This document shows positions 2,599-19,654 of a DNA stretch of 55,432 bases, piece after piece. The DNA lies in the NCBI GenBank assembly GCA_015486105.1, contig WFSI01000149.1, positions 1 to 55,432 on the forward strand, given 5' to 3'. The DNA comes from Aquificota bacterium (GTDB taxonomy: Bacteria; Thermosulfidibacterota; Thermosulfidibacteria; Thermosulfidibacterales; B14-G1). Numbering within the stretch: position 1 is the stretch's first letter; each line of letters starts with the position of its first letter. The translations under genes and the position numbers were made by a program. Under the pieces are notes generated by a model. That model saw only the letters and a program-made list of their open reading frames with translations. It was not told where the DNA came from and made no database searches.

Positions 2599-3786
2599 TT
2601 ACAGATACCCTTTGTCTGAGAAATACCTCTCCATTCTGTCAAAGGCCTTGTTGATATCCTCTGCATTGGTACAGAAGGACATCCTTACGTGGCCCTCTCC
2701 TGTCGGACCAAAGGCTACCCCTGGGACCACGGATACCTTGGCCTTAAACAAGAGATCCTTACACAAAGAGAGAGAGTCCTTTCCCTCCTCCACAAGGACC
2801 TTGGGAAACATATTATAAGAACCCCTCGGTCTCTGATATGAGAATACAGAATCCAACTCATCCAACCTTCGGCACATCAAGTTCCTAAAACGCAGATATT
2901 TTTCTCTAAATTCAGTCACACAATTCTGAGGACCTTTTAAGGCAGCAAGGGCTGCATACTGAGATACTACAGGAGTGCAGATTGTCATAGGAATATGGGC
3001 TTTTCTGATTTGTTCTATCATCTCCTCGGTAGCCACCACATAGCCTACCCTCCACCCTGTCATCACGTATGTCTTGGTGAAGGTGAAGCAGCTTATGGTC
3101 CTTTTTTTAAACTCCGGAATAGATGCAAGGCTGAAGTGTTCTGCCCCATCGAATGTGAAATACTCATAGGCTTCATCCGTAATGATTGCTAAGTTATGCT
3201 CCTCAGCTATCTCTGCTATACTTAGTAACTCTTCCTTATTAAATACTGTCCCTGTAGGGTTACACGGAGAGCAAAAGAGTATGGCCTTAGTCTTAGGGGT
3301 GACCGCCCTCCTAAAGGCATCCAAATCCAGCCTGAACCCTTCTTCTTCTATAGTAGGTACGAAAACAGGCACCGCTGAGGCTATTTCAACTTGAATGGTA
3401 TGGGTCGAGTAGTTGGGAGAAGGTAGGAGTACCTCATCGCCTGGGTCCACTACTGCCATCACGGCAGCAGTGAGCCCCTCAATAGCCCCATTTGTTACAA
3501 TAACTTCTGCTGGTGTAGCATCTATGTTGTTGTCTCTCTTTAATTTCTCAACTATGGCCTTCCTCAATTCCAACAGTCCAGGTACAGGAGAGTAAGCGCT
3601 CACCAGATTGTCCCTTATGGCCTTTATTGCCGCCTCGTTGATGAACTCCGGCGTGCTACCCTCTGGCCTAGCCCAAGAAAGAAAGGCTACATCAGACATG
3701 GTAGCTGATAGTCTGGTCATCTCATGAATGGCAGAAACGGGGATATTACCCACCCGCCTTGAAACTAAACCCCCCAGCTTTTCCAT
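2599..3786 (-). CDS. PLP-dependent aminotransferase, class I/II (aspartate aminotransferase-like)
   Basis: 395 aa with typical fold-type I motifs: TNGAIEGL, LPSPNYSTH, NPTGTVF, ITDEAYEYF, FTFTKTYVMTGWRVGY (PLP lysine region) and VRMSF. Confidence 0.85.
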   Translation of the reverse strand: MEKLGGLVSRRVGNIPVSAIHEMTRLSATMSDVAFLSWARPEGSTPEFINEAAIKAIRDNLVSAYSPVPGLLELRKAIVEKLKRDNNIDATPAEVIVTNGAIEGLTAAVMAVVDPGDEVLLPSPNYSTHTIQVEIASAVPVFVPTIEEEGFRLDLDAFRRAVTPKTKAILFCSPCNPTGTVFNKEELLSIAEIAEEHNLAIITDEAYEYFTFDGAEHFSLASIPEFKKRTISCFTFTKTYVMTGWRVGYVVATEEMIEQIRKAHIPMTICTPVVSQYAALAALKGPQNCVTEFREKYLRFRNLMCRRLDELDSVFSYQRPRGSYNMFPKVLVEEGKDSLSLCKDLLFKAKVSVVPGVAFGPTGEGHVRMSFCTNAEDINKAFDRMERYFSDKGYL

Positions 3787-3867
3787 GGCTCTCCCCCCTC
3801 CTTACTTGATTTGACAGCCGGGGAATTTCATACGCCTTTAGTCCATCAATAGCAAGTGCTCAAAAGC

Positions 3868-3902
3868 ACAAAGATGGGATGGAGGACAAACGCCCCCATC
3901 CC
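3868..3902 (-). terminator. Possible intrinsic terminator after the CoA-transferase genes
   Basis: Minus strand reads GGGATGG-13 nt-CCATCCC followed by ATCTTTGTGCTTTT. The loop is long, so this is weak. Confidence 0.3.
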
Positions 3903-3927
3903 AAACAAACAGCAGAGTTACAGGGCC

Positions 3928-5271
3928 TTACACTACTCCCCTATTTTTCAACTCCTGGAGTTTTCCCTTTCCTATTCCCAGGAGGGTGCTGAAGATGAAC
4001 TCAGTGTCTGCACCTACAGGACGACAAATCCACTTCACCCTCCAGGGCGACCCAGACATCTTCCATGGTAGATTGGCGATCACCAACTCTCCGTATATGG
4101 GGTCCTTGAATTTCTCAAAAAGTCCCCTTATCCACCAGTTGTTGTTCTCATCTGAAACGTTCTCCAAGGGCGAACGGATCTTACCAGGCACCACCACGCC
4201 GCCTTTGCCTGTACTTTTTGCCTCGTCATTGGCAGCCATACACCTGTCGTATATCTCCTGATACTCGTGTGCCAAGGTCCATTTCTCAATCTCTTTGTAG
4301 GCCTTCTTCATGTTGTCAAACTTTAAGCGCTCGAAGATGGTGGGATACTGTTCCCTCAGGTCGAGCCTATCTATCACCTCTGTGAGCAGACTCCAGTTCA
4401 CATCGGAGAATCCAGATAAGAAGCAGAAACCGTCCTTGCACTTAAAGTAGGTGTAACAAAAGACACCTGCATCCAGGTTGCCTGCCCTCTCAACGGTCTC
4501 TCCCCTGCCATGGTAATAGGTCAAGCTGTAATTGATCATCCTACCCAAGGCCTCAGCGGGAGAAATATCTATCATCTGACCCTTGCCCGTGCGGTGCCTG
4601 TAATGAAGAGCCGTAAGAATGGCAAATGCGGCGTAAGCACCACCATTATACCAGCCCTGCCAGTTACCCTGCTTGGTGGGCACCTCCCACTCTTGGGGGT
4701 TGTTGGGGTCCTCCACATACTCACCAGAGACATAAGTTACACCGGACATGGCCTGATCCACCACATCAGCATCGGCCTTGTTGCAGGCAGCCTTTGGCCC
4801 ATACTGACCATAGGTATAGATGGCACAATAAATGAGATCGGGCTTGATCCCCCTAAGTTGGCGATAACCAATGCCCCATTCATCCATCTGTCCCGCCTTG
4901 AAGCTCTCTATGAGCACATCTATCCGATTGTCCACCAGCCTCTTAAGTATCTCTCTCCCCTCATCCGTTTCCAAATTCAGGGTGATGTGGTACTTGTTAC
5001 GTCCCTCGTTCAGATAACCCAGGCCTTCTCCCATATGGGTAATACCAAAAGGGGTGTATGTACGGGCAGGATCTCCTCCAGGGGGCTCTACACGTATAAC
5101 ATTGGCCCCACACTCAGCCAAGATAGAGGAAGCAAAAGAGGCACCCATGTTGGCGTAGCTCAAATCCAAGACCCAGAGATCATCCAGGGCCTCAGGTTTC
5201 TCCCTGTTGAACCTGGGATCGTCTTTCTCTCTTATCCACTCACCCCAGGGTATAGATTTATCAACAGCCAT
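3928..5271 (-). CDS. Family III (CaiB/BaiF) CoA-transferase, A-type subunit, copy 1
   Basis: 447 aa. Motifs LDLSYANMGASFASSILAECGANVIRVEPPGGD and DVVDQAMSG are family-III hallmarks. Paralog of 6637-7968. Confidence 0.85.
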   Translation of the reverse strand: MAVDKSIPWGEWIREKDDPRFNREKPEALDDLWVLDLSYANMGASFASSILAECGANVIRVEPPGGDPARTYTPFGITHMGEGLGYLNEGRNKYHITLNLETDEGREILKRLVDNRIDVLIESFKAGQMDEWGIGYRQLRGIKPDLIYCAIYTYGQYGPKAACNKADADVVDQAMSGVTYVSGEYVEDPNNPQEWEVPTKQGNWQGWYNGGAYAAFAILTALHYRHRTGKGQMIDISPAEALGRMINYSLTYYHGRGETVERAGNLDAGVFCYTYFKCKDGFCFLSGFSDVNWSLLTEVIDRLDLREQYPTIFERLKFDNMKKAYKEIEKWTLAHEYQEIYDRCMAANDEAKSTGKGGVVVPGKIRSPLENVSDENNNWWIRGLFEKFKDPIYGELVIANLPWKMSGSPWRVKWICRPVGADTEFIFSTLLGIGKGKLQELKNRGVV

Positions 5272-5283
5272 CTCTAACCTCCT

Positions 5284-6624
5284 TTATGGGAAAATAATTC
5301 CAGATTTACCGTCCCAATCATCAGGTGGCGTTCTGCTTATGAAATCTGTCCACTTGCCGATAGCCCCCTTATCCTCCAACTCCTTGATCTGATCCTGAGT
5401 GAGGCCCAGGTACTTAGTGAACACATACTCGTTGTCAAAACCAACGGGCTTGCCCATCCATTTGACCCTACCAGGGGTCTCAGACAACTTAGGTGCCACA
5501 CCTTCCTCTACCCCATCCCCAAGAATAGAGTCGTCAATGTGCCACTTGAACCCCCTCACCTCAAAGTGCTCATCGTAGTAGTGGTCCCGCCCATTATGGA
5601 CCTTTTCTGCAGCAAAGCCGTATTTTTGAGCCTTCCTGTCTACCACCTGCCAGGTATTGTTTGCTACCCAGTCTTTCACTATGGAGAGGAGCTCCTCTGC
5701 ATTGCCTTCCTTTGTTCTTTCAAGGTTGGTGACAAATCGGGGATCGTTGACCAACTCCGGCTTACCCATAGCCTCGCAGAGACCCTTAAACTGCTCATCG
5801 GTGGTGGTGGCCACTGCCACCAGCTCCCCATCCATACTCCTGAAGATGTCAGAGGGGCATATGGCCACGTCCCTGTTACCGTACCGGTCCCTATCCTTGC
5901 CGGTGAGGTGGCAGTAAAGCCAGGTCCAATCCATAGCCCTCATAATGTTCTCTGCCTGAGACATCTCCATATACTGGCCCTTGCCAGTCCTGTCCCTGTA
6001 GTGAAGGGCCACAAGAATACCCACAGCAGACATGAGACCCCCGTAGTAATCGCAGAGCCAAATCCCACTCTTCATAGGGAGCCTGCCAGGAAATCCCGAT
6101 ATCCAGGCCTCCCCAGACTCCGACTGGGCAATGGCATCGTATGAGGGCCTCACTAAATATGGACCCCACTGGCCAAAACCGTTATTGGCAATGTAGATAA
6201 GACGGGGATTAATTTCAGCCAAATCCCTGTACCCAACACCCCACCTGTCCAAGGTGCCACCCCGAAGATTCTCCACCACCACGTCGGACTGGGCCACCAG
6301 CCTCTTGAAGAGCTCCTTGCCCTCTTCTTTATGGCAGTCAATGGCCACATGAAGCTTGTTTCTGGCACACTTAAGCCAGCCCAGTGCCTGATTCTTCCAG
6401 AACCATCCCCATGGAGTAAGGGAACGCATGGTGTCTCCCATGCCAGGCAACTCCACCTTGAAGACGGTAGCACCAAACTCCGTGAGATAGGCAGGGGTAG
6501 AAGGACCGAGGATCAACGTACAAAACTCTACAATCTTGATATCGCTCAGGGCCTCAGGTTTGGAAAAGACCTCCTCCATGGAGAAAAGTTCCCCAGCCCA
6601 TTCAAAATAATCACTCTTAGCCAT
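5284..6624 (-). CDS. Family III CoA-transferase, B-type subunit, copy 1
   Basis: 446 aa. Motifs [27 protein letters not shown] and [11 protein letters not shown]. Paralog of 7987-9324. Confidence 0.85.
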
Positions 6625-6636
6625 TGTTTCTCCTCC

Positions 6637-7968
6637 TTATATCACGCCTTTGGATTTAAGCTCTTCAAGCTTCGTGTTGCCATATCCCAAAAATCTTTTG
6701 TAGATAATGACGTTATCAGCACCAACGGGTCTGCAGAGCCATTTCACCCTGGCCGGGGTCTCTGTCATCCTGTTGAAAGCCGGATTGGCAATGGTGATCT
6801 CGCCGTAGTTAGGATCATTAAGCTTGACAAAGGCGCACCTGATCCACCAGTTATCCTCACCCAAGGTGTCCAAGGGTTTATTGACTTTGGCCGTAGCCAC
6901 CACACCCACAGCATCAGGGGCCAGATTGAACTTCATCACCGTATCTGTGAGCTCTTGAGAGGTGAGGTTTCTGGACCACTCCTCGACAACATGGTGGATC
7001 TTAGGCTGATTCTCAGGGTTAAGGCGATCAAAGATGGTGGGGAACATATCCTTCACTTCAGGCTTGCCCATGATGTTGCATAGATGGGTCCAGTTCACAT
7101 CGGAAAAGCCAGAGATAAAGTTGGTACCGTCTTTGGTCTTCACAAAGGTATAGGGAAAGACAGCAGAGTCGTAAGGCCCTATCCTGGATCTCAGCTCCTT
7201 GGCTTGGTGGTACCACTGGAGATGATAGTCGCAGTACTTGAGCAAGCCCTCAGGGGGAGCTACATCTATGAACTGACCCTTGCCACTCTCCATTCTCCAG
7301 ATAAGAGCCACCAAGGCACCATATGCAGCCCAAACCCCACCGGCATACCAACCCATCCAGTTACCCTCTTTTGTGGGAACCCTGCACTCCTCGGGAATCT
7401 CGGGCTCGACGGGCTCTCCTGTTATAGCCATGATGCCACCCCGGGCCTGATCAACAATGTCATAGTCGGGCTTGGCTCTGTTTTTCTCGGCCTCGGGACC
7501 GAACTGGCCATAGGTGTAAATGGCACAGTAAATGAGACCTGGATTCACCTGAGAGAGTTGGCGATAGCCTATGCCCATCTCATCAGCCATGCCCGGTTTA
7601 AAGGTCTCAATAACCACATCGGCGTAACGGGCCAGATCCCGATAGATCTTCCTACCCTCCTCTACCTCCAGGTTAAGGGTGACATGGTACTTGTTACGCC
7701 CCTCGTTGAGATAACCCAAGCCCGTATCCTTGTGGATCATGCCAAAGGGGGTGAACTTCCTGGCCGCATCTCCTCCGGGAGGCTCTATTCTGATGACAAA
7801 GGCTCCAAGCTCTGCCAGGAGAGACGCCCCAAAGCAACCACCCATATGGGCCCTACTCAAATCCAGCACTACCACACCGTCCAGGGCCTCGGGTTTCTTA
7901 TGGGCATACCTGGGATCATCCTGTTCCCTTATCCACTCGTCCCAAGGTTTGGTCTTTTCAACACTCAT
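6637..7968 (-). CDS. Family III CoA-transferase, A-type subunit, copy 2
   Basis: 443 aa. The N-terminal 76 residues are 50/76 identical to 3928-5271 by hand count. Carries the YDIVDQARGG motif. Confidence 0.85.
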   Translation of the reverse strand: MSVEKTKPWDEWIREQDDPRYAHKKPEALDGVVVLDLSRAHMGGCFGASLLAELGAFVIRIEPPGGDAARKFTPFGMIHKDTGLGYLNEGRNKYHVTLNLEVEEGRKIYRDLARYADVVIETFKPGMADEMGIGYRQLSQVNPGLIYCAIYTYGQFGPEAEKNRAKPDYDIVDQARGGIMAITGEPVEPEIPEECRVPTKEGNWMGWYAGGVWAAYGALVALIWRMESGKGQFIDVAPPEGLLKYCDYHLQWYHQAKELRSRIGPYDSAVFPYTFVKTKDGTNFISGFSDVNWTHLCNIMGKPEVKDMFPTIFDRLNPENQPKIHHVVEEWSRNLTSQELTDTVMKFNLAPDAVGVVATAKVNKPLDTLGEDNWWIRCAFVKLNDPNYGEITIANPAFNRMTETPARVKWLCRPVGADNVIIYKRFLGYGNTKLEELKSKGVI

Positions 7969-7986
7969 CTTCTCACCTCCCCAGAT

Positions 7987-9324
7987 TTACAGATAAAAGA
8001 GTCCCTTCTTGCCATCCCAATCTTCAGGTGGCTTTGCTCCAACCCTATCTCCCCACTTACCTATAACACCCTCCTCTTCCAATTCCTTGAGACTATCTCG
8101 GGACAAACCAGCTATTCTCAAGAACACATGCTCATTGTCAAAACCCACAGGCCGAGAAGTCCATTTCATCCTGCCAGGGGTCTCAGACATCTTAGGAACG
8201 GGGCCACATTCCACCACGGTATCGTAAAGGGGATCCTCAAACTCACACACCGTACCACGAGATCTCCAATGCTCGCTTTCATACTGGTCCTTGGCATTGA
8301 GAACACGAGTGGCAGCAAAACCGTACTGGGCACCCAATTCGTCTATCTCGGCCATAGTCTTACCTTTAGTCCAATCAGCTACAATGCCTAAAATAGCCTT
8401 GGCATTCTCGTCCTTGAGCCTATCCAAGGGATCTTTAAACCTGGGGTCATCAGCTAGCCCCGCCTTGCCCATAGCCTGGCAGAGGCCCGAGAACTCCTCT
8501 TCAGAAAAGGCAGCAATAGCTATGAAACCGTCCTTGCACTTGAAAAGATCCGAAGGACATATAGCCAGATCCCGATTCCCCGCTTGGGGCCTGTTCTCAC
8601 CGGTAAAGTGGGCATACAGCCAACTCCAGTCAAGCCACCGCATGAGGTTCTCACCCTGGGAAAACTCAATGAACTGACCTTTACCCGTCTTCTTGGCGTA
8701 GTAAAGGGCCGCCAGTAAGGCAATAGACGAAGTACAAGCCCCGGTAAAATCTCCAATCCACACCCCAGCCTTCAGAGGAGGCCTTCCCGGAAATCCCGAG
8801 ACAGACATTAGCCCGCTTACCGATTGAGCAATAGCATCGTAGCTGGGACGCCCCTGGGCATAAGGACCCCACTGGCCAAAACCATTGTTAGCCAAATAGA
8901 TGATATGAGGGTTCACCTCCTTCAAATCCCTGTAACCCACACCCCAGCTATCCAAGGTGCCTGCCCTCATGTTTTCCACCACCAAGTCAGATTTCTTAGC
9001 CAGATCAAGGAAAATCTCTCTCCCCTCGGGTTTTCTCAGGTCCAGTCCCACGTGATACTTGTTATGATTCTGCTCCTCAAAGGCAGGGGAAAGGTTCTTC
9101 CAGAAGAAACCATAAGGGGTAACGTATCTCATGGTGTCTCCAGCCCCAGGCAGCTCCACCTTGATCACCTCCGCTCCAAAATCCGTAAGCCAATCGGGAA
9201 CAGCCGGACCAAAAATAAGGGTACACACCTCCAGCACCCGCACCCCCTTCAGAGCTTCAGGCTTTAAAAACGCCTTTTTGGGGTCCAAAACCTCAGCCGC
9301 CCATTGGAAAAAATCACTACCCAT
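7987..9324 (-). CDS. Family III CoA-transferase, B-type subunit, copy 2
   Basis: 445 aa. Motifs IFGPAVPDWLTDFGAEVIKVELPGAGD and [11 protein letters not shown]. Confidence 0.85.
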   Translation of the reverse strand: MGSDFFQWAAEVLDPKKAFLKPEALKGVRVLEVCTLIFGPAVPDWLTDFGAEVIKVELPGAGDTMRYVTPYGFFWKNLSPAFEEQNHNKYHVGLDLRKPEGREIFLDLAKKSDLVVENMRAGTLDSWGVGYRDLKEVNPHIIYLANNGFGQWGPYAQGRPSYDAIAQSVSGLMSVSGFPGRPPLKAGVWIGDFTGACTSSIALLAALYYAKKTGKGQFIEFSQGENLMRWLDWSWLYAHFTGENRPQAGNRDLAICPSDLFKCKDGFIAIAAFSEEEFSGLCQAMGKAGLADDPRFKDPLDRLKDENAKAILGIVADWTKGKTMAEIDELGAQYGFAATRVLNAKDQYESEHWRSRGTVCEFEDPLYDTVVECGPVPKMSETPGRMKWTSRPVGFDNEHVFLRIAGLSRDSLKELEEEGVIGKWGDRVGAKPPEDWDGKKGLFYL

Positions 9325-9364
9325 TCTGCACCCCCGTGACTGTTTTGGATAAAACCTTATTTTC

Positions 9365-9393
9365 TATGTAGAGGAAAGCCCCAAGAGTGTCAA
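9365..9393 (-). promoter_or_regulatory. Sigma70-like promoter candidate ahead of the CoA-transferase genes
   Basis: Minus strand reads TTGACA (9393-9388), a 17-nt spacer, then TACATA (9370-9365). Lies in the 117-bp gap between the MFS stop and the CoA-transferase start. Confidence 0.3.
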
Positions 9394-9441
9394 GAGAATT
9401 TTTGCCCATAATTAATAGGGTTTACTAACACTAACAGGGGG

Positions 9442-11049
9442 TCAATCAAGGGTTAGAGAAATGGTCCTATTCCTTTCCCTGATGAGGGGAACCAAAAGGA
9501 GAGAAAAGAGGCATGCCATCCCAAAGATTACCATGCAGTCCTGAAAGGCAAAGATATAACTCTTCAGGGTGATCACCCCATGGAAAAAAGCCTTCACCTG
9601 AGTAGTAGCCCAATTTGGAGGTTGGCTATGGGCCATGAGATAAGCCTTGAGACGACCATAAGAAGGAACAAGGAGAGGATGAGAGGGATCAAGTCTCCTT
9701 GTCATCCCCAAAAAGTGAAGGTACTTCCTGGACTCCATATGGGAGGTGGCGAAAGCCGTACCTACTGCCCCCGCTATGAAACGGATAACATGAATCATAG
9801 AAGCCCCTGTATCCAGGTGCCTATGGGTAAGGCAAGCCAAACTCATGTAATTTAGGGGAGTGAAGACTGCCCCCACAAAACCTATATAAAAAGCTATGAG
9901 CATAACGAGGGTAGCTTTGCTTGTATACCCATCGGCATGGCTGAGAAAATAAAAACCCACAGCCATGCCTATCAAAGCCAGGGCCATGATCCTTCTTCCA
10001 CCAAACCGATCAGTAAGGCGGCCCACCATCACTCCCATGAAACCATTCATCAAGGCCCCAGGCAGTATGAGGAGACCCGTGAGGAAGGTAGGATACATCC
10101 TGAATTTCTCCAGGTATATAGGTATAAGATAGAAGGAACCGTAGATCGCTCCACCAAAAACCAAACGTATAAGCATGGTAGCTGAGAAATCCCTAACGCC
10201 AAAGATGGTGAGATCAATGAAGGGATGCTCTTGGCGGAGCTCCCACCACAGAAACAAGGGAAAGGTGACCACCGCTATAGCGAAAAGGATAAGGATATAG
10301 TCCGAGGCCAGCCATCCCTTCTCCTGTCCCTTAGAGAGAGCAATAAGGAGGGATGAGATGAAGGCCGTAGAGAGGATAAAACCCATGATATCAGGGGGTA
10401 CCCTCTTGTCTTTACCTTCCCCAGGTCTAAGGATGAGGTATGCCCCATACCAGAGGGTGATGCCTATGGGAAGATTGATGTAAAAGGCCCAACGCCAACT
10501 GAAATGCTGGGTCATGTATCCCCCCAGAGTAGGCCCCAGAGCAGGGCCCATGGTGGCGCCCAAACCAATGAGTCCCATAGCCAGACCACGTTGCTTAGGG
10601 GGAAAAGCCACAAAAATGAGCGAGGTGACTGTGGGAATAACAAGTCCTTCCCCTACTCCCTGAAGCACCCTACCTAAGATCATCTCCCCCATGCTGGTGG
10701 CCTGACCACAAAAAGCGCTCATAGTGGTGAAGAGGGCCAACCCAAGGAGACAGAGATTCTTGTAACCCAACCTCTCCGAAAGACGCTTAAACATGGGCAT
10801 AGTAACCGCCGCTGCCACCATATAGGCTATTACTACCCATTGAATATCATAAAAATCCGCATTTAAAGCCGCCATCATGTGGGGAATGATCACATCCACC
10901 ACGGTGGTATCCAGAATCACCATGAGGAGAGATGGAACTGCCACTGCCGCCACCAGCCAGTGGTAATGATCTATCCTATCTTTCTCTAAGGCTAAACCCG
11001 TATCAAGAGCGTCAATAGCCACGGATCCCCCAGAAAGATCCCTTTTCAC
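9442..11049 (-). CDS. MFS transporter, DHA2 (EmrB/QacA-like, 14-TMS) family
   Basis: 535 aa and highly hydrophobic. Has MFS motifs near the N-terminus (LDTTVVDVIIPHM, GRLTDRFGGRR-type loop). The GTG start overlaps the upstream ALDH stop (GTGA). Confidence 0.8.
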   Translation of the reverse strand: MKRDLSGGSVAIDALDTGLALEKDRIDHYHWLVAAVAVPSLLMVILDTTVVDVIIPHMMAALNADFYDIQWVVIAYMVAAAVTMPMFKRLSERLGYKNLCLLGLALFTTMSAFCGQATSMGEMILGRVLQGVGEGLVIPTVTSLIFVAFPPKQRGLAMGLIGLGATMGPALGPTLGGYMTQHFSWRWAFYINLPIGITLWYGAYLILRPGEGKDKRVPPDIMGFILSTAFISSLLIALSKGQEKGWLASDYILILFAIAVVTFPLFLWWELRQEHPFIDLTIFGVRDFSATMLIRLVFGGAIYGSFYLIPIYLEKFRMYPTFLTGLLILPGALMNGFMGVMVGRLTDRFGGRRIMALALIGMAVGFYFLSHADGYTSKATLVMLIAFYIGFVGAVFTPLNYMSLACLTHRHLDTGASMIHVIRFIAGAVGTAFATSHMESRKYLHFLGMTRRLDPSHPLLVPSYGRLKAYLMAHSQPPNWATTQVKAFFHGVITLKSYIFAFQDCMVIFGMACLFSLLLVPLIRERNRTISLTLD

Positions 11050-12236
11050 TCTCTCAAAAAACCCTGGGTAAGCTCCAAGGGATAGACCAGGGCCCCCCCT
11101 CTCCTCACAATCTTAGGGCCTCTCATCTCCAACACCCAACCACTGTCCCTCCTGCCACCAGAGGGGTCACGGGGATTTAGATAGAGAAACTGGGGGTCCC
11201 AATAGACACTTCCATAGAGACGCTCCAGGGATTTTTTACCCCCAGGGCATTCTCCAAAGGCATAGGCAATCAAGGGATAACGGGTCTTCAAAGCCTCTCT
11301 CAAAATAGCCGAGGCCGAGGTCTCAGCCTTGATAGCCAAAAAGGGACCAAAGACCTCAATGTCCGGTATGTGCTTGGTGAGAACCACTGTGGGATAAAGC
11401 CACTCACCCTGGGGAGGCCCTCCCCAAAGAAGGGAGCCTTTCATCATCTCCAATCCCCTTTGAAAGAGCTTTCGAGTCCGTTCTGCCTTGATAGGCCCGT
11501 AGTCCACTTGGGGATCCAAGGGATCTCCCACCTTTATCTCTCCCACCTCAGCCAAAACTCCATGGATAAAGGGTTCAAGGAGATCTTTATATACCAGGGC
11601 CCTCTTGATGGTGGTACAGTACTGCCCCCCATTGAGAAAGGCCCTTCTGGCAGCAAAAATAGCCGCCTGCTCCACATCAGCCCCAGGAAAAACCAAGACC
11701 GGTGGCATTCCCCCAGGCCCCGCATATATAATCTTGTCGAAAAAGTCTATGGCCCTGGCATACACCCTCCCCACAATGCCAGATCCAGAGATAAAAAAGA
11801 CCCTCACCTGTGGATCATCTATGCACTCCTGACCAAAAGCCCGGTTGTCCTTATCCAGCACTACTTCAATCCTGTCCTCCCACGGGGCACACACTTCCCC
11901 TATAAGCTCAGCCGCTCTAGGAGTAAGAGAGGAAAAACTTACCCGAATCCTATTTCTACCCAGAAGAGCTGCCCCTCCCCACCGGGCAAACATGACTGTG
12001 GGAGCATCGTAGGGAAATACAGCCCCAATAAGACCGTAGGGCTCCCGCCCCTCCACCAAGGGGGCATCCTCCTTCATAGTATCAAGATGCTTAGCGCTCA
12101 GGCTGATCTCCGCCTTAGTCACCTTTATCGCCTGACCAATGTCCAAGGCCAAGGCCTCACAAAAGGACCCTTCCCTTTTCTCTATCTCCCTGCCTAAAAA
12201 GGCCAGCATCTCTATCCTTTCCCCCAGTTCCATCAC
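11046..12236 (-). CDS. Aldehyde dehydrogenase-superfamily protein, short form, general-base Glu replaced (ALDH-B)
   Basis: 396 aa. The catalytic Cys region GGQYCTT and the EVFGPF motif are present. The position equivalent to the ELGG glutamate reads YAGPGG (Ala). Confidence 0.7.
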   Translation of the reverse strand: MMELGERIEMLAFLGREIEKREGSFCEALALDIGQAIKVTKAEISLSAKHLDTMKEDAPLVEGREPYGLIGAVFPYDAPTVMFARWGGAALLGRNRIRVSFSSLTPRAAELIGEVCAPWEDRIEVVLDKDNRAFGQECIDDPQVRVFFISGSGIVGRVYARAIDFFDKIIYAGPGGMPPVLVFPGADVEQAAIFAARRAFLNGGQYCTTIKRALVYKDLLEPFIHGVLAEVGEIKVGDPLDPQVDYGPIKAERTRKLFQRGLEMMKGSLLWGGPPQGEWLYPTVVLTKHIPDIEVFGPFLAIKAETSASAILREALKTRYPLIAYAFGECPGGKKSLERLYGSVYWDPQFLYLNPRDPSGGRRDSGWVLEMRGPKIVRRGGALVYPLELTQGFLRE

Positions 12237-12244
12237 CCCCCTCC

Positions 12245-13267
12245 CTAAGATAATCTCTGGGTTATACCCTCACAGGCTCTATCTAACTGCTTGACCTCCT
12301 CTCTCCAAATGGGTATCTCATTCACGCCTACCACTCCACCTAAGTCCACTGTTGCAGGGACAGCCATGATCCCATGGAAACCATAAAACTCGCCCCTAAG
12401 GACGACATGCAATGGACCACAAAACCATCCCCTGGCCAATAGGCCTTCCAGTATCATCATGATAGCACTGGCAGGACCGACCACGGTTTTAGAGCCACTG
12501 TAGTGGGTGAGCCATGGCCGTATGAAAAGTCTGTAAACCATGGGCATCCGATCCAGTTCTCTAAAAATCTCTACCAAAGGCCTCCCCTTCATATCGCTAA
12601 TCAGACGTGACCAGGCCTCCATAATGGGTTCATCGGTTTCAATAGCCAACTCCCTCTCTATCCTCTCCTCAAGAGCCCCCTTCCCCCAACCAGAAACCAT
12701 CACAGAACTCCACAGAGGCACCATAAGGGGCCCGTGATCCCCAAGGACCATGGCAGATACATAAGCCATGGGAACCTGCCAAGCCCGGGCGATCTCCTTC
12801 CTAAATCTCAGGGTATCCAACAAACAGCCCATGCCTACCACCTTCCTGGGACCTATCCTTTCTGCAAACACCTTCACTCCCAGCTCTACAGGATTCGAAA
12901 CATGGATCACCATGGATTCAGGAGAAACCAAGTCTGCATAATATCGAAAGACCTCTAAATTATAGGACCTGAGCTTTTCCCGGGTAAACTCCGTTGTGGG
13001 AGATCGTGGAAAGGTAACACCCGCCGTCATGATCACCAACTGGGCCCGGATCTCACAGGGATCTATGGAAACCTCTATTGGAGGTAAAACGCTGCCAAAG
13101 GCGTCCTTCATGTCCTCTACCAGGCCATGGATCAGGTTCTTAGAGGTTCCTGATGAGCGACTCACCAGGAGCACCCTGTGGTCCTTGACCAAAAGTCCCG
13201 AGCTCAACAAAAGGAGCAAAAGCCGCTGTCCAATGTCACCACTGGCACCAATTATGGCTATGGTCAT
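12245..13267 (-). CDS. Lactate/malate dehydrogenase-family 2-hydroxyacid dehydrogenase, divergent
   Basis: 340 aa. N-terminal Rossmann IAIIGASGDIGQ, substrate Arg motif LDTLRFRKE and catalytic His in LGDHGP. Clear paralog of 28526-29575. Confidence 0.75.
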   Translation of the reverse strand: MTIAIIGASGDIGQRLLLLLLSSGLLVKDHRVLLVSRSSGTSKNLIHGLVEDMKDAFGSVLPPIEVSIDPCEIRAQLVIMTAGVTFPRSPTTEFTREKLRSYNLEVFRYYADLVSPESMVIHVSNPVELGVKVFAERIGPRKVVGMGCLLDTLRFRKEIARAWQVPMAYVSAMVLGDHGPLMVPLWSSVMVSGWGKGALEERIERELAIETDEPIMEAWSRLISDMKGRPLVEIFRELDRMPMVYRLFIRPWLTHYSGSKTVVGPASAIMMILEGLLARGWFCGPLHVVLRGEFYGFHGIMAVPATVDLGGVVGVNEIPIWREEVKQLDRACEGITQRLS

Positions 13268-13280
13268 CCCTGTTGCCCTC

Positions 13281-14558
13281 TCATTCCTCCAGGATGCTTG
13301 TCTCCAAGCTCAGAAGCTTTGGCCCCTGCCTCAACCTAAAGGCCTCACCCAGGGCATCCCACTCCCATCCCGAGTATCCATAGCCACCTACGGCCTTTAC
13401 CACAAAGGCCCCCTTCCAGGACTCTGACCTGGGCTCGTTTAAGCTCACGGTGCCGAATTTGCCAAATACAAGCTTCGGCACATCGTGCATATAAGGCTCA
13501 CCTCTCAGGGCCGAGGTGACCATTTCTGCCTCATCATATCCATAAACCGCTGCCCTCAGGCCGTATCGGTTCCGCTTGGCCATAGAGATCACCTCATCAG
13601 GGGTGTCAAAGGGGATCACAAAGCTCACAGGGCCAAAGGTCTCCTCCTGGACACCCAACATATCAGGCCTGGCATCTGTTACAATAGTAGGGTATACAAG
13701 GTTTCCCTCAACCCTACCCCCAAGGAGAATGCGGGCCCCCTTCTGCCTTGCATCCTCCAGCTGCCTCTCTATGTTCTCCACCGCAAGGGAGCTGCCCAAA
13801 GGGGTGATCACCGTCTCCGGGTCTTCCGGATCCCCCACCTTTGCCTCCTTGCTCTTCTCTACAAAAGCCCCTAAAAACTCACTGTAGATGCCCCTCTGGA
13901 CATACACGTTCTCGGGAGCCGTGCAGGTCTGGCCAGAGTAGGAGTACTTAGCTTCAAAGAGGTCATCTATAGCCTCCCTAAAGGGGGCATCGTTAAAAAC
14001 GATGAATGGGTCACTACCCGGCCCCTCAAATATGAGCCGCTTTCTATGCGCCAAAACTTCTTCTTCGTATGGGAGCACAGTTCGCTCCGAGCCGAAAATA
14101 CAAATAGCCTTCACACTCCCATCCCCGATGGCCCACTCTATGAATTCCTTTCCAGGGCGGTAATCAAAGGAGACATCATCGCCAAAGATAGGGTGATAGA
14201 TGGATTCCAGGAGACAAGCTATATCCGAACCCCTGGAGGAAAACTTCACCCTCACCCTGTTCCCAGCCAAGTATATGGTAGCGATCACAATATTGAGCCA
14301 GGCACTCCCGTTATAGGAGAGGGCCAGGGCCACACACTCACCTTCCCTGCAGAGGGGTCTTCTGCCATCAAGGATCTCCTTTACCCTCCAACACATCTGC
14401 AGGCGATCTTTGGCCACAGAGATCTCCTGGTGGTTATCCCGATATGAAAAACCAATGTCCTTGATGGCCAAAGCCACCAGCTCGTCCCTATGCGCCTCCA
14501 GCTCATCAGCAAGCCGGTATATTCTGTCAAGCCTCTCGGCAAATGTGATCCCACCCAT
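13281..14558 (-). CDS. Aldehyde dehydrogenase-superfamily protein, short form (ALDH-A)
   Basis: Motif FEGPGSDPFIVF carries the catalytic Glu, SGQTCTAP carries the Cys 34 residues later, and EETFGPV is present. The tracked ORF starts at 14606 and overlaps paaI. I prefer ATG 14558 (GTG 14576 is also possible). Confidence 0.75.
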   Translation of the reverse strand: MGGITFAERLDRIYRLADELEAHRDELVALAIKDIGFSYRDNHQEISVAKDRLQMCWRVKEILDGRRPLCREGECVALALSYNGSAWLNIVIATIYLAGNRVRVKFSSRGSDIACLLESIYHPIFGDDVSFDYRPGKEFIEWAIGDGSVKAICIFGSERTVLPYEEEVLAHRKRLIFEGPGSDPFIVFNDAPFREAIDDLFEAKYSYSGQTCTAPENVYVQRGIYSEFLGAFVEKSKEAKVGDPEDPETVITPLGSSLAVENIERQLEDARQKGARILLGGRVEGNLVYPTIVTDARPDMLGVQEETFGPVSFVIPFDTPDEVISMAKRNRYGLRAAVYGYDEAEMVTSALRGEPYMHDVPKLVFGKFGTVSLNEPRSESWKGAFVVKAVGGYGYSGWEWDALGEAFRLRQGPKLLSLETSILEE

Positions 14559-14577
14559 TGTTTCTACCTTTTTCACA

Positions 14578-15015
14578 TCAACCTTCCGGCGGAAAGGGCT
14601 TGTCAAATCGGTAAACCGTACCCTTAGTAAGGGCGATCATTTCTCCCCTGGCATTGGTCACGGTCATGATGTAAGTAGCTGTCCTTTTCCCTAAATACCC
14701 CTCCTTCGCTTCGGCCAATATCCGCTCACCCAGGGAAACGGCCTTCAAAAAGCTCATGCTCACCTCCAGTGCCAAGGCCAAGCTTCCATAACTGTTGCTG
14801 GCCAGGGCAAAGGCCAAATCACTTAAGGAGAAAAGCACACCACCATGGCAAACGTCGGCTGCATTCAAGTGCATATCCTCCACGGTGAGAGCTACCTTTG
14901 CGTATCCGGGGGAGACCTCCAAAACCTCAACCCCTAACAGATCTATCAACCTGTCCCTACTGGCAATGTACTCCTTCACCCCCTCAGCCACGGCCTTTGA
15001 AGCATCATTTCCCAT
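14578..15015 (-). CDS. PaaI-family hotdog-fold acyl-CoA thioesterase, copy 1
   Basis: 145 aa. [23 protein letters not shown] is the PaaI active-site segment. Confidence 0.8.
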
Positions 15016-15030
15016 GCCTTCCCTCCTTAT

Positions 15031-15675
15031 TTATTCCCATTTATCTCCTTTTCTTCCAACCGCTTTTATTCCGGCCAGCGAGAATTCGGCTATATGGCTC
15101 GCCAGCCTCTCCAGAAACTCAGGGGTAATAGACTGACCAAGGAGATACTCGAGATCGCAGGGCCTGACCGTCGCCAGGACTCTACACTGTTGGACAATGC
15201 TCAACTCGCAGAGCATCACGTCCTCGTCTACAACCTTCCTCCCCATGACCCTGCGGATAATCTCTAAAAGAGCCCTCCTCCTCGGCTCAATCAGTTCATG
15301 CCAGAACTCCCGGACCAGGCCCGTAGGGTTCAATAGCTCCATCATATACAACCGGGCAAACTGCCCCTGGTATCCAGGATCAGTGAATTTCCTGATCAGG
15401 TAATTGATATAGGCACAGAGTTGCTTCTCGGGGGGGTCAGAGACATCGGATATATCGAGCCATGGATACTTTTCGAATGCGCGCTTCCAGGCTTCAACAT
15501 AGAGACTGGCTTTATCGTTAAAGTAATAGTTGATGGCAGCGACGTTTACACCTGCCCTCTTGCAGATCTCCGCAACTGTAGCTTTATGGTAGCCCCTCTC
15601 GGAAAACAGCTCACAAGCAGCTTCTAAGAGGCGGTTACGTGTCTCTTTGCCATCTTCCCTCACGCTCCACACCAT
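15031..15675 (-). CDS. TetR/AcrR-family transcriptional regulator
   Basis: The N-terminal HTH is TRNRLLEAACELFSERGYHKATVAEICKRAGVNVAAINYYF. The tracked ORF begins with the TTG of a TTGACA box at 15726. I prefer ATG 15675 (or GTG 15672). Confidence 0.85.
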   Translation of the reverse strand: MVWSVREDGKETRNRLLEAACELFSERGYHKATVAEICKRAGVNVAAINYYFNDKASLYVEAWKRAFEKYPWLDISDVSDPPEKQLCAYINYLIRKFTDPGYQGQFARLYMMELLNPTGLVREFWHELIEPRRRALLEIIRRVMGRKVVDEDVMLCELSIVQQCRVLATVRPCDLEYLLGQSITPEFLERLASHIAEFSLAGIKAVGRKGDKWE

Positions 15676-15679
15676 TACC

Positions 15680-15726
15680 TTGACATTTTTAAATATGTAC
15701 TTAAAATAGCTGCTCAAAAATGTCAA
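15680..15726. promoter_or_regulatory. Inverted repeat TTGACATTTTT-25 nt-AAAAATGTCAA: divergent promoter/operator
   Basis: 11-bp perfect arms at 15680-15690 and 15716-15726. The plus strand reads TTGACA-16 nt-TAAAAT (15702-15707). The minus strand also starts with TTGACA. Lies between tetR and the divergent methyltransferase gene. Confidence 0.5.
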
Positions 15727-15804
15727 GACAAAAGGAGGAGAAATGAGGCTCAGGGCAGACTTTTACTTATCACCCTTAGCAGTCATGCTTCTTACAATGA
15801 ACAA

Positions 15805-15833: not shown

Positions 15834-16472
15834 ATGGAGATACATGGAACCCCTGGCAGAAAGGTCGGAGAAATGAAGATGAACCAGAAACCACCTGGCG
15901 CCGGAAGGAACAGCTTCGCCCTGATAGAAACACACAGGCTCTTTCAAGAGATCCGCCTCACCCGGGAAAAGGTATTCCTGGATCTCGGCTGTGGCCCCGG
16001 GAGTTACTCAATGACCGCTGCTCAGTACCTTCCTGAACAAGGCAAGGTGTTCGCCATAGATCTATGGGAGGAAGGACTCCATCGCCTGAAAAAAGCCCTC
16101 GCCATCAGGGGTATATCGAACGTCTTTCCGGTGTTGACCGACATTGGCCAAAGCATTCCCCTAAAACAAGATAAGGTGGATGTGTGTCTGATGGCCAACG
16201 TGCTTCACGGGCTGATCCTTTCGAAAAAGGATAAGGGGGCATTGCAGGAAATCGCCAGGGTACTTAAGCCCAGAGGCAAACTGGCCGTTATCGAGTTCAA
16301 AAAAGTCCCAGGCACCCCTGGGCCGCCAATGGACATCCGCATTGGAGCCAGCCAACTCTCAGACATGATTGAGCCTTATGGATTCAGAAATGCAAAGGTG
16401 GTGGAGATAGGACCGTACAATTACCTCGCCCTGTATAGACTGGAGGTGAATAATGCCTACAGTAATCATTGA
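15834..16472 (+). CDS. Class I SAM-dependent methyltransferase
   Basis: 212 aa with SAM motif I FLDLGCGPGSYS. An alternative start at ATG 15873 is preceded by GGAG. Confidence 0.8.
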   Translation: MEIHGTPGRKVGEMKMNQKPPGAGRNSFALIETHRLFQEIRLTREKVFLDLGCGPGSYSMTAAQYLPEQGKVFAIDLWEEGLHRLKKALAIRGISNVFPVLTDIGQSIPLKQDKVDVCLMANVLHGLILSKKDKGALQEIARVLKPRGKLAVIEFKKVPGTPGPPMDIRIGASQLSDMIEPYGFRNAKVVEIGPYNYLALYRLEVNNAYSNH

Positions 16473-16653
16473 AGGGCCTTCATTAACTATCGAAAAGAAG
16501 CGCACCCTGGTCTCGGCCATCACGAAGGTGATCAGCGAGACCTATAAATGGCCTGCCAAACGAATCATCGTGATCATTCACGAGAATTCAGACGAGAACG
16601 CAGCCCGAGGAGGTATGCTACTGGCAGATAAGCATATAGGGCCAGACACTTAA
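16453..16653 (+). CDS. 4-oxalocrotonate tautomerase-family protein
   Basis: 66 aa. MPTVIIEG has Pro at position 2, which is the catalytic Pro1 after Met removal. Size and the beta-alpha-beta pattern fit the family. Confidence 0.7.
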   Translation: MPTVIIEGPSLTIEKKRTLVSAITKVISETYKWPAKRIIVIIHENSDENAARGGMLLADKHIGPDT

Positions 16654-17105
16654 GACACCTCGGCATCCTCCGGCGGGAAGGGCTTGTCGAAGTGGTAGCT
16701 CACACCTTTAGCCAGGGCGATCCTTTCTCCCTTATCGCCGATCACTTCCATGAGGTAGAGGCCAATTGCCTTGCCACTCTTAATCTCCCTGGCCTCCGCT
16801 ACAAGTTCATCACCCAAATTGGCAGCCTCGAAGAGGCTCATGTTCACCTCTATGGCAAAACCCAGCCTACCATGGCTGTTACCGGCTATGGCAAAGGCAA
16901 AATCACATAAGGAAAATAACACACCATCGTGGCAAACTCCTGCAGCGTTTAAATGTTTGTTCTCCACAGTCAAGGCCACCCTGGCATACCCAGGAGCCAC
17001 ATCCAATACCCGGATCCCAAGGAGCCCCCTGAGCCTGTCACGCTGGAAGGTATACTCCCCCACCTTTTTAGCTGTAGCCCTTCTCTGGTCCTTCTCCATC
17101 TCCAT
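16650..17105 (-). CDS. PaaI-family hotdog-fold thioesterase, copy 2
   Basis: LNAAGVCHDGVLFSLCDFAFAIA. Alignable end to end with 14578-15015, including the shared C-terminus FDKPFPPE. Start chosen at MEMEKD (17105) to avoid overlap with the upstream gene. Confidence 0.75.
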   Translation of the reverse strand: MEMEKDQRRATAKKVGEYTFQRDRLRGLLGIRVLDVAPGYARVALTVENKHLNAAGVCHDGVLFSLCDFAFAIAGNSHGRLGFAIEVNMSLFEAANLGDELVAEAREIKSGKAIGLYLMEVIGDKGERIALAKGVSYHFDKPFPPEDAEVS

Positions 17106-17145: not shown

Positions 17146-17790
17146 TTACTTCCTGACCTCCGCCCAAAAACCCGCCTTATCAGGGATGATGCAATAGTTA
17201 GAGATATTAGCTTTGCGTAAAACATCTTCCAGTCTCTCGAGGGAAGCATAGGCTACAGCCGCCTCCCCCAGGGAACGATCCCTAAGGGTTTTCATCCTCT
17301 TTAAATCCTCATCGGTGACATATCGGCCGAAGCCACCGCCCACAAAGGCGATGCCCCCTTTCTTCAACACCCTGTAAATTTCCTTGAACACCTGCACCTT
17401 ATCATCCCAACAGTGGTAAGCACCCCTGCTGATTATGAAATCGGCGAACTCGTCATCGAAGGGGAGATCATTGGCATCACCCAACACGGGGGTTATCCTA
17501 CCCATAAGGCCCTCCTCCTCTATATTCATGCAGGCCACCTCGTATATGGCCTTCTCTTTCTCCAAGGCATATATCTTTAGCTTGGTGCCCTTGCACAACT
17601 CGATGGCAAAGATTGCCGTACCGGCCCCCACATCCACACATACGCCCTCCAGATCGCCATAATCCTCAATAATCTGACTGACGGTAGAACGTATGGCCGG
17701 CATAAAGTTCTCTCTCACCTTCTTATCGAAGTCCTTAGCCTTTTTAAGATCCATCTTGCTGTATTCAGCAGGAATCCGCTCATCAGACAT
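17146..17790 (-). CDS. Class I SAM-dependent methyltransferase
   Basis: 214 aa with motif I VDVGAGTAIFAIEL and an acidic loop ending in ALEKE. Confidence 0.8.
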   Translation of the reverse strand: MSDERIPAEYSKMDLKKAKDFDKKVRENFMPAIRSTVSQIIEDYGDLEGVCVDVGAGTAIFAIELCKGTKLKIYALEKEKAIYEVACMNIEEEGLMGRITPVLGDANDLPFDDEFADFIISRGAYHCWDDKVQVFKEIYRVLKKGGIAFVGGGFGRYVTDEDLKRMKTLRDRSLGEAAVAYASLERLEDVLRKANISNYCIIPDKAGFWAEVRK

Positions 17791-17949: not shown

Positions 17950-17965
17950 GAGTCCCCAAACCAAA

Positions 17966-19630: not shown

Positions 19631-19654
19631 AACTCCACCTCCACGCTGTAGTTT

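Follow-up and report, generated by a model that had tools for sequence, protein, structure and literature searches.

Eleven genes for acid, aldehyde and CoA-thioester chemistry under a TetR-family regulator: a possible lineage-specific join of separately inherited units

Eleven consecutive minus-strand genes at positions 2599-15726 of contig WFSI01000149.1 (the whole 55,432-nucleotide stretch analyzed is called the window) encode a TetR-family regulator, a PaaI-type thioesterase, two aldehyde dehydrogenase (ALDH)-like proteins, ALDH-A and ALDH-B, a lactate/malate dehydrogenase-like enzyme (LDH-like), a major facilitator superfamily (MFS) permease, four family III CoA-transferases and an aminotransferase. 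Comparison with related loci, numbered with the prefix L, suggests that separately inherited units with one theme in common, TetR-controlled acid handling and export, were joined in this lineage, and that the array is not a single conserved pathway operon. This reading is held tentatively, at a probability of about 0.45. Two of the units are referred to as block 1 (TetR to LDH-like) and block 2 (ALDH-B to the last transferase). The features of the array, taken from a six-frame listing of open reading frames (ORFs) with Pfam and NCBIfam scans, are as follows.

15031-15675, minus strand: TetR-family repressor with a CecR_C ligand domain, block 1 (ORF 15726-15031; Pfam TetR_N, PF00440, 61.9 bits, and CecR_C)
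14578-15015, minus strand: PaaI-type hot-dog acyl-CoA thioesterase, block 1 (Pfam 4HBT and TIGR02286)
13281-14576, minus strand: ALDH-A, a short aldehyde dehydrogenase, block 1 (ORF 14606-13281; Pfam Aldedh, 201.6 bits)
12245-13267, minus strand: LDH/MDH-like L-2-hydroxyacid dehydrogenase, NADP-type, block 1 (Pfam Ldh_1_N and Ldh_1_C)
11046-12233, minus strand: ALDH-B, a short ALDH-fold protein, block 2 (ORF 12236-11046; Pfam Aldedh)
9442-11049, minus strand: DHA2 (EmrB-type) MFS efflux permease, block 2 (TIGR00711, efflux_EmrB)
9365-9415, minus strand: internal promoter region in a 117-bp gap (TTGACA at 9393-9388, 17-nt spacer, TACATA at 9370-9365)
9324-3928, minus strand: four CoA_transf_3 genes, alpha, beta, alpha and beta in turn, namely
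7987-9324, minus strand: alpha-type, pair 1, or alpha-1 (CoA_transf_3, 378.6 bits; aspartate motif SYDAIAQ, alpha C-terminal tail)
6637-7968, minus strand: beta-type, pair 1, or beta-1 (Pfam, 285 bits; aspartate motif DYDIVDQ, beta insertions)
5284-6624, minus strand: alpha-type, pair 2, or alpha-2 (Pfam, 345.2 bits)
3928-5271, minus strand: beta-type, pair 2, or beta-2 (Pfam, 288.9 bits; aspartate motif ADADVVDQ)
3875-3903, minus strand: terminator-like hairpin in a 141-bp gap (11-bp stem, seven G-C pairs, T-rich tail; top-ranked in the region)
2599-3786, minus strand: class I aminotransferase with its own ribosome-binding site (Pfam Aminotran_1_2, class I/II)

Block 1 was found without block 2 in L001-L009 and L013-L016, in eight distinct arrangements, and ALDH-B, the MFS gene and the transferases were never seen in these loci. 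The order ALDH-A then LDH-like was constant in the loci of four close sequence clusters, with identities of 79-84% for ALDH-A (L001-L009) and 73-78% for LDH-like. In L003-L006 and L014 the pair is preceded by TetR and PaaI genes, and divergent from TetR runs an MFP-RND-OEP efflux operon with a methyltransferase and a tautomerase gene at its end. In L002/L013 and L007-L009/L015 the ALDH-A/LDH-like operon includes an ADP-forming acyl-CoA synthetase, both subunits of which were called in L007 and L008, together with a helix-turn-helix (HTH)-cupin regulator. A ketoacyl synthase gene lies upstream of the pair in L001 and L016, and L001 also has a PaaK-like ligase with an ACT-domain protein within 5 kb. 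Most block 1 loci carry a 160-amino-acid 4HBT-like gene after LDH-like, the place held by ALDH-B in the window. In all arrangements except L001/L016 the pair adjoins a 4HBT/PaaI-type thioesterase and/or an ADP-forming acyl-CoA synthetase, so a link between ALDH-A/LDH-like and CoA chemistry is reasonable.

Block 2, probed with the beta-1 transferase and ALDH-B, recurs in four metagenome contigs. The full set of ALDH-B, MFS, alpha-1, beta-1, alpha-2 and beta-2 was recovered in L010 and L099 with 67-84% amino acid identity (84% for the MFS protein in L010) and 74% nucleotide identity over 8.2 kb. Block 1 is absent from these loci and from L096-L098; 8-10 kb upstream could be read in L096 and L099 (10 kb in L099). 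In L096-L098 block 2 begins in the same way, with an enoyl-CoA hydratase gene divergent upstream. The MFS gene of L097 and L098 is missing about 580 bp (window 10477-9894), is split into two ORFs and looks like a pseudogene, and the transferase genes of L098 are intact despite this. The closest relative, L095 (83-84% nucleotide identity), aligns to window positions 12164-10988 and then to 4146-2605. A deletion of about 6.8 kb between the first 60 nt of the MFS gene and the 3' end of beta-2 (L095 positions 1185-1375) left a 139-amino-acid beta-2 remnant; the MFS gene and nearly all of the transferase genes are gone, and ALDH-B and the aminotransferase are kept. Its recurrence together with these losses shows block 2 to be a real, separately inherited cassette in which the MFS and transferase genes are dispensable in some lineages. 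No locus with both blocks was found among L001-L016 and L093-L143; the exceptions are L148 and L149, which come from the source metagenome of the window.

An initial annotation of this DNA had proposed one CoA-dependent pathway for the whole cluster and had itself named missing co-conservation in relatives as grounds for abandoning that view. The genes turned out not to be co-conserved as a whole. CoA chemistry connected with the ALDH-A/LDH-like pair is a reasonable part of the proposal; its unity does not stand, with blocks 1 and 2 inherited separately. In a single catabolic pathway, the MFS permease would take up a dicarboxylic or hydroxy acid, the transferases would activate it, ALDH-B would interconvert acyl-CoA and aldehyde, ALDH-A and LDH-like would process aldehyde and 2-oxo compounds, and PaaI would proofread. 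Such a pathway would suit the co-directional, tightly packed array and some enzyme properties given below. Nevertheless, it is rather unlikely. Apart from the incomplete co-conservation, the permease is of the efflux type and is a pseudogene in L097/L098 next to transferases that are intact in L098, the closest relative has lost the transferases and kept ALDH-B and the aminotransferase, and the cluster contains no hydratase, lyase or thiolase that would carry a CoA ester into central metabolism, nor any other enzyme passing the product on.

The favored reading, of joined units with a common theme, draws on L117 for that theme. The TetR protein of L117 is 59% identical to that of the window, the same distance as for the L003 TetR, and its gene and an RND efflux operon are transcribed divergently. 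Behind the TetR gene come a PanE/ApbA 2-oxoacid reductase, a DUF3187 protein and an ALDH-B homolog (43% identity), with a PaaI-like gene convergent downstream. The roles are those of the window (TetR, pump, hot-dog thioesterase, short ALDH and NADPH-dependent 2-oxoacid reductase) and the parts are non-orthologous. In L100 a DHA2-like MFS gene is directly beside ALDH-B in reversed order, and in L093 ALDH-B is paired with a FlK-type thioesterase. Accidental juxtaposition by rearrangement, with no common physiological function, would account for the independence of the blocks in all relatives, for the mostly stand-alone position of ALDH-B elsewhere and for an operator found solely at the TetR promoter. 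It is considered highly improbable in view of the 11-nt junction with a strong ribosome-binding site and the 4-nt overlap that follows it, the recurrence of the same role set in L117, L003-L006 and L100, and the arrangement kept on two scaffolds.

The array itself is sound. The eleven genes, their order, their common strand and their family assignments were confirmed by the ORF listing and the Pfam/NCBIfam scans. The tight junctions of the initial annotation were likewise borne out: neighboring genes overlap or are 1-23 nt apart, except at the 117-bp and 141-bp gaps. So was the promoter-like site in the former gap, as TTGACA-17-TACATA is conserved in three relatives. The terminator described as weak is not; the hairpin at 3875-3903 scores best in the region and closes the transferase unit. 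The statement that the combination is no textbook operon also holds. The cluster is accounted for by no known equivalog: all NCBIfam equivalog scores lie far below cut-off, and relatives in the Protein Data Bank (PDB) are distant. In the source metagenome (ENA ERZ23495180) the same array occurs twice, on scaffold 110 and on scaffold 131 (L148 and L149), with 99.9% identity to the window over 7.2 kb, and is therefore no assembly artefact. Compared with relatives, all array genes are under purifying selection (dN/dS 0.04-0.17, NG86).

The TetR start is most likely the ATG at 15675 (214 amino acids), matching gene callers (213-214 amino acids) and relatives; ALDH-A most likely starts at 14576 or 14558, and the start codon of ALDH-B is the ATG at 12233. 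At the joint between the blocks, the TAG of LDH-like is followed by the ribosome-binding site GGAGGGGGG and the ALDH-B ATG, with a spacing of 11 nt, and the ALDH-B stop overlaps the MFS start in GTGA. A terminator-like hairpin with a T-run was also noticed at 11062-11080 (minus strand), within the last ALDH-B codons and immediately ahead of the MFS start, where it could dampen transcription continuing into the MFS gene.

The window has about 51% G+C and a steadily negative GC skew. A tRNA-Ser gene lies at 2376-2464, downstream of the aminotransferase gene. A genomic island at this adjoining tRNA was considered and rejected on the grounds of the uniform GC content and skew across the window and the lack of an integrase. 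Window genes point to a host with an outer membrane and multihaem cytochromes, and the nearest relatives are hydrothermal metagenome-assembled genomes (MAGs) labelled Thermodesulfobacteriota or Aquificota.

Upstream of the array, the region shared by TetR and the divergent genes contains the following features.

15679-15727: candidate TetR operator, with a 12-nt perfect inverted repeat (CTTGACATTTTT / AAAAATGTCAAG)
15834-16472, plus strand: S-adenosylmethionine-dependent methyltransferase (Pfam), divergent from TetR with the operator region in common
16453-16653, plus strand: 66-amino-acid protein of the 4-oxalocrotonate tautomerase (4-OT) family (Pfam), overlapping the methyltransferase 3' end
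16650-17105, minus strand: second PaaI-like hot-dog thioesterase (4HBT; TIGR02286, 93.8 bits, below the cut-off of 118.9)

The TetR protein is 58-59% identical to the TetR proteins of L003-L006 and of L117. Within the candidate operator, an inner core palindrome, TTTTTAAATATGTACTTAAAAT, occupies 15686-15707. The outer ends and the core ATTTTAAAT-N4-ATTTAAAAT are kept in L003 and L014, and the 55-kb window contains the core motif a single time, where chance would give 0.01 copies. The operator overlaps a strong promoter-like plus-strand TTGACA-16-TAAAAT (11 of 12 positions) directed towards the methyltransferase, as well as a minus-strand TTGACA directed towards TetR. A palindrome at its own promoter combined with an N-terminal HTH domain is what would be expected of a TetR protein with a local operator, which this one is predicted to be. 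No second copy was found ahead of ALDH-B, the MFS gene or the transferases, allowing up to three mismatches.

The methyltransferase-tautomerase pair is syntenic with L003-L006, where it ends the divergent MFP-RND-OEP efflux operon and the RND pump sits between TetR and the pair. The window lineage therefore lacks these RND genes and has the MFS gene at the operon end instead. The second PaaI-like protein, with 73-74% identity in L003-L006, is syntenic with block 1 relatives as well. The tautomerase ORF (MPTVIIEG...) retains Pro1 and is shorter than the 80-amino-acid cut-off of the initial ORF listing. Further upstream on the same strand (17146-22035, minus) are genes for a second methyltransferase, a FadL/TodX-family outer-membrane channel (554 amino acids), a FadD-like long-chain acyl-CoA ligase (561 amino acids) and a 232-amino-acid protein that matches no family. 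Together they may be a unit, next to the array, that takes up and activates hydrophobic acids.

Of the block 1 enzymes, PaaI scored 119.3 bits with TIGR02286 (hydroxyphenylacetyl-CoA thioesterase), marginally above the equivalog cut-off of 118.9; it is 79% identical to its counterparts in L003-L006. ALDH-A has the complete canonical catalytic set, namely YNGS (Asn169), VKFSS (Lys192), FEGPGS (Glu268), GQTC (Cys302) and EETFGP (Glu399). Its nearest named relatives are enzymes for succinate semialdehyde, sulfoacetaldehyde and lactaldehyde, and these acidic short aldehydes would fit the single catabolic pathway.

In the LDH-like enzyme the equivalents of Arg109, Asp168, Arg171 and His195 are R96, D151, R154 and H178, and together with G7-A8-x-G10 they are invariant or nearly so in 39 sequences. 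The Arg102 equivalent, R88, is conserved only within this small clade. The Arg171 and clade-specific Arg102 equivalents, as in malate dehydrogenases, are again in keeping with a single dicarboxylate pathway. An NADP-type signature, VSRSSG (VGRSSG in four relatives), follows beta-2 of the fold, and the substrate loop exceeds the usual length by four residues. In the PDB, an NADP-dependent malate dehydrogenase matches best. Assignment as a bona fide malate or lactate dehydrogenase is not supported, the best NCBIfam score being 123 bits against a cut-off of 283.

Searching with the LDH-like protein gave four close sequence clusters only, all others being at most 40% identical. In the 76 genome loci with distant homologs (L017-L092) there is no ALDH partner beside the LDH-like gene, and in 62 of them a putative ACT-domain protein of about 150 amino acids directly follows. 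With most distant genes paired to an ACT-type protein, only a small clade has ALDH-A and LDH-like together. The ACT label is by resemblance, and in one homolog, P0059, the LDH-like domains and an ACT domain are fused in a single protein. Represented among the loci are cyanobacteria, Armatimonadota, Verrucomicrobiota, Actinomycetota and Planctomycetota. This LDH-like/ACT pair is conserved, is annotated by no source beyond malate/lactate dehydrogenase and is unrelated to the window cluster. The window has a second LDH-like paralog (28526-29698, minus strand; 33-39% identity to the block 1 LDH-like proteins of relatives), located between glnE and genes for outer-membrane proteins and multihaem cytochromes. 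In this paralog Cys replaces the Arg109 equivalent and the residues after beta-2 are acidic (NAD-type), and it may not be a conventional dehydrogenase.

ALDH-B differs from canonical ALDHs. Alignment showed that it keeps Cys302 and Glu399 and has lost other residues of canonical catalysis, the substitutions being Asn169 to Asp, Lys192 to Ser, Glu195 to Ser and Glu268 to Ala or Gly, invariant in 36 aligned family members. Its AlphaFold model (pLDDT 93) has the full ALDH fold with a TM-score of 0.86. Glu268 is the water-activating residue of ALDHs, and its loss would fit CoA-dependent rather than hydrolytic release, a point for the single catabolic pathway. What may speak against this is that the nearest proteins by sequence and predicted fold are classical hydrolytic ALDHs (20-25% identity), and that the fold search gave no match to CoA-acylating ALDHs. 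CoA dependence of ALDH-B is something we infer only.

The ALDH-B family has a length of about 395 amino acids, with 120 relatives among the matches listed, all at least 41% identical; those with a taxon label belong to Thermodesulfobacteriota, Syntrophobacterales, Desulfobaccales and Thermosulfidibacter. At identities of up to 50%, homologs are for the most part solitary genes, and among the neighbors of distant homologs only endonuclease V and hypothetical proteins recur. In one further locus, L102 (5824-11613), the ALDH-B homolog is beside an IclR regulator, a single family III CoA-transferase, a UbiD-like decarboxylase and an MFS gene, a layout that resembles anaerobic phthalate-type clusters.

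The MFS protein scored 392.9 bits with the TIGR00711 efflux_EmrB model (cut-off 230.2) and so belongs to this subfamily. Passing an efflux model favors export over uptake, and the permease is predicted to export. The uptake step of the initial annotation is thus not the simplest reading, given the DHA2/EmrB efflux match and the RND pump that relatives carry divergent from TetR.

All four transferases match PF02515 over the full profile with 285-379 bits (cut-off 23.3). In a ten-sequence alignment, alpha-1 and alpha-2 were 54% identical and alpha and beta 35-38%. The alpha type is marked by a C-terminal KW...PP(D/E)DWDGK tail and the beta type by two insertions. Within the (Y/A)D-x3-Q motif, none of the ten aligned alpha and beta sequences departs from Asp163 or Gln167, the former being the family's catalytic aspartate (Asp169 of formyl-CoA transferase). 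The active-site aspartate of family III transferases has been described, as has SptAB (PMC11659651). In every locus examined alpha lies directly before beta (twice in the window, and in L010, L011/L012, L099, L144/L145 and L146/L147), and Desulforhabdus, the archaeon Geoglobus and a MAG all show the type marks and this order. The four proteins thus look, as far as sequence can tell, like two heteromeric alpha-beta pairs; the heteromeric subunits of the initial annotation are upheld at that level by the two types, their own indels and their constant adjacency. Adjacency and co-inheritance are also what characterizes heteromeric family III pairs of the BbsEF, SptAB and SmtAB kind.

None of the transferases falls inside a clade of known substrate, as the mesaconate, glutarate, oxalate, formyl-CoA and carnitine equivalogs scored 81-224 bits against cut-offs of 413-750. 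The nearest named relatives are mesaconate, glutarate, oxalate and formyl-CoA/oxalate enzymes, and PDB relatives are all distant. The action of these named relatives on small dicarboxylates is a further point for the single pathway. BbsE and BbsF, and not SmtAB or SptAB, were used for comparison with known heteromers. Alpha-1 scored 130 bits with BbsF, 89 with BbsE and 170-176 with the homodimeric Frc, YfdE and SUGCT type, and beta-1 scored 78 bits with BbsE and 65 with BbsF. The contexts of homologous pairs vary. That in Desulforhabdus is uninformative, L144 has an aminotransferase and a Liv-type ABC transporter, and in Geoglobus ahangari (L146 8641-16731; CP011267) the pair is convergent with genes for enoyl-CoA hydratase, acyl-CoA dehydrogenase, two DUF35 proteins and two thiolases, a Bbs-like beta-oxidation set. 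In the literature nothing specific was found that would be equivalent to the alpha-beta pair or to the whole cluster; a benzene-degrading Desulfobacterota cluster includes a loosely related pair of type III transferases without an assigned role (PMC13101534).

The transferases are preceded by the internal promoter region, which is near-invariant in L010, L099 and L098, where coding DNA is only about 74% identical; the region has no operator copy. The element AATTAATTATGGGCAAAAAT at 9395-9415 (minus strand), just upstream of the -35 hexamer, is near-invariant in the same three loci and may be a binding site for another regulator.

It is distinctly unlikely, although conceivable from these properties, that block 2 is an undescribed CoA-dependent route in which the transferases place CoA on an aromatic or dicarboxylic acid and perhaps shift it, ALDH-B, as a new ALDH-fold class, interconverts thioester and aldehyde, and block 1 finishes the conversion under TetR. 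If true, such a route would exist in hydrothermal-vent bacteria under one TetR switch.

The aminotransferase passes none of the NCBIfam equivalogs. Downstream of block 2 in L010 and L099 lies RNase J and no aminotransferase; the gene is syntenic only in the closest relative, L095, which retains it after the transferase deletion. Its retention there and absence from L010 and L099 show that its position is independent of the transferases. The aminotransferase is probably a separate unit and a member of neither block, and its inclusion in the cluster by the initial annotation is not sustained.

Two substrate classes are pointed to. The nearest relatives of the transferases and of ALDH-A and the Arg102 equivalent of LDH-like indicate small dicarboxylates. 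Pointing to aromatic acids are the tautomerase, the TIGR02286 match of PaaI, the UbiD surroundings in L102 and, in relatives, partners of the acyl-CoA synthetase and PaaK-like ligase type. A version of the favored reading that names a substrate would place the array in arylpyruvate overflow from aromatic amino acids. The aminotransferase would make arylpyruvate, the 4-OT tautomerase would equilibrate its enol and keto forms and LDH-like would reduce it to aryllactate; ALDH-A would oxidize arylacetaldehyde, PaaI or the transferases would handle arylacetyl-CoA and aryllactyl-CoA, and the pump would export aromatic acids. Precedents for single steps are the FldA-type transferases and the phenylpyruvate tautomerase activity in the 4-OT/MIF superfamily. 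The proposal draws on PaaI at the hydroxyphenylacetyl-CoA thioesterase cut-off with a second PaaI-like gene nearby, the tautomerase-family gene in the divergent operon, the class I aminotransferase adjacent to the array, the synthetase with HTH-cupin regulator of relatives, the PaaK-like ligase with ACT-domain protein of L001, and the ALDH-B homolog of L102 in an IclR/transferase/UbiD/MFS cluster of aryl-dicarboxylate type. Even so it is doubtful: the PaaI score barely reaches threshold, the Arg102 equivalent and the nearest relatives of the transferases suit small dicarboxylates, the aminotransferase is co-conserved with neither block outside the closest lineage, and the window contains no indolepyruvate or phenylpyruvate oxidoreductase and no dehydratase.

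In its general form, the favored model of three joined units would work as follows. In unit 1, the CecR-type TetR protein would bind the palindrome over its own and the divergent promoter and control PaaI, ALDH-A and the NADP-type LDH-like enzyme, and probably also the divergent methyltransferase and 4-OT tautomerase. Unit 2, starting 11 nt after unit 1, would consist of the Cys-only ALDH-B translationally coupled to the EmrB-type permease and, as an accessory cassette behind its own conserved promoter, the two alpha-beta family III CoA-transferases. Unit 3 would be the stand-alone aminotransferase behind the terminator. One class of organic acid would be present as aldehyde, as 2-oxo or 2-hydroxy acid and as CoA thioester. 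The ALDHs would oxidize the aldehyde, the LDH-like enzyme would interconvert the 2-oxo and 2-hydroxy forms with NADP(H), the thioesterase and transferases would release or re-route CoA, and the pump would export the free acid. TetR would derepress when the acid or its CoA ester accumulates. In this scheme we infer to which class the substrate belongs, which way it is transported, that the transferases are heteromeric and what TetR binds as ligand; gene content, catalytic residues, the operator palindrome, the internal promoter and the pattern of synteny and loss are observed.

Several points weigh against this model. Family III CoA-transferases are best known from catabolic acid activation, and the position of the Geoglobus pair beside beta-oxidation genes suggests degradation rather than detoxification. 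The direction of transport is not readable from sequence. The argument from non-orthologous replacement rests mainly on one locus, L117. Since ALDH-B homologs at 50% identity or below are mostly alone, the association of ALDH-B with the rest of the array may be incidental or of recent origin. Finally, the 11-nt junction is the sole ground for assuming that transcripts from the TetR promoter continue into block 2; the short junctions, the conserved internal promoter and the terminator bear on co-transcription only indirectly.

If the model holds, vent thermophiles would build acid, aldehyde and CoA-thioester handling from interchangeable parts under one conserved TetR; the exchanges seen are between RND and MFS, PanE and LDH-like, ALDH-A and ALDH-B, and synthetase and transferase. 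The families are all known, and the alpha-beta transferase, Cys-only short ALDH and ALDH-A/LDH-like clades are uncharacterized. The ancient alpha-beta pair, found from Thermodesulfobacteriota to Archaeoglobales, deserves biochemistry, as does the short ALDH, a widespread protein that is under strong purifying selection even though three of the canonical catalytic or cofactor residues are gone.

Several known systems can be set beside the parts of the array. PaaI has the hot-dog fold of the phenylacetate-pathway thioesterase and a score at the TIGR02286 cut-off; it is set apart by the marginal nature of that score and by the lack of phenylacetate-pathway (paa) genes in the 55-kb window. Archaeal LDH-like malate/L-2-hydroxycarboxylate dehydrogenases of the MJ0490 type (PDB 1hye, 9sc9 and 9sd3) are among the best PDB matches of the LDH-like enzyme and have the His195, Asp168, Arg171 and Arg109 equivalents and the NADP-type signature after beta-2 in common with it, but the match is restricted to the N-terminal 190-230 residues (64-79 bits) and the loop of the window enzyme has four additional residues. 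ALDH-B is similar to the non-hydrolytic enzymes of the ALDH superfamily, which use a thioester or phosphate acyl acceptor, in having the nucleophilic Cys and the nicotinamide-ribose Glu399 and no Glu268. Unlike them it also lacks Asn169 and Lys192, and it is nearest to hydrolytic ALDHs.

Known heteromeric family III enzymes are the succinyl-CoA:benzylsuccinate (BbsEF), succinyl-CoA:phthalate (SptAB) and succinyl-CoA:malate (SmtAB) CoA-transferases. The window proteins resemble them in that two different CoA_transf_3 subunits lie side by side, both with the catalytic Asp, in a pairing conserved across phyla. No specific relatedness to BbsEF is indicated, as the window transferases score lower with it than with homodimeric enzymes; in addition, the window has two tandem pairs and no glycyl-radical, beta-oxidation or UbiD partner. 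The regulatory part resembles the TetR/AcrR-type efflux regulons (E. coli CecR/YbiH and AcrR) in its TetR_N and CecR_C domains and in a palindrome over divergent promoters, although the window TetR scores far below the cut-offs of CecR, AcrR and similar NCBIfam equivalogs. In relatives the pump is divergent from the regulator; in the window an efflux-type MFS gene is in the TetR operon instead. In contrast to those regulons, the window operon is dominated by enzymes, with a thioesterase, an ALDH and a 2-hydroxyacid dehydrogenase, and does not consist of a pump alone.

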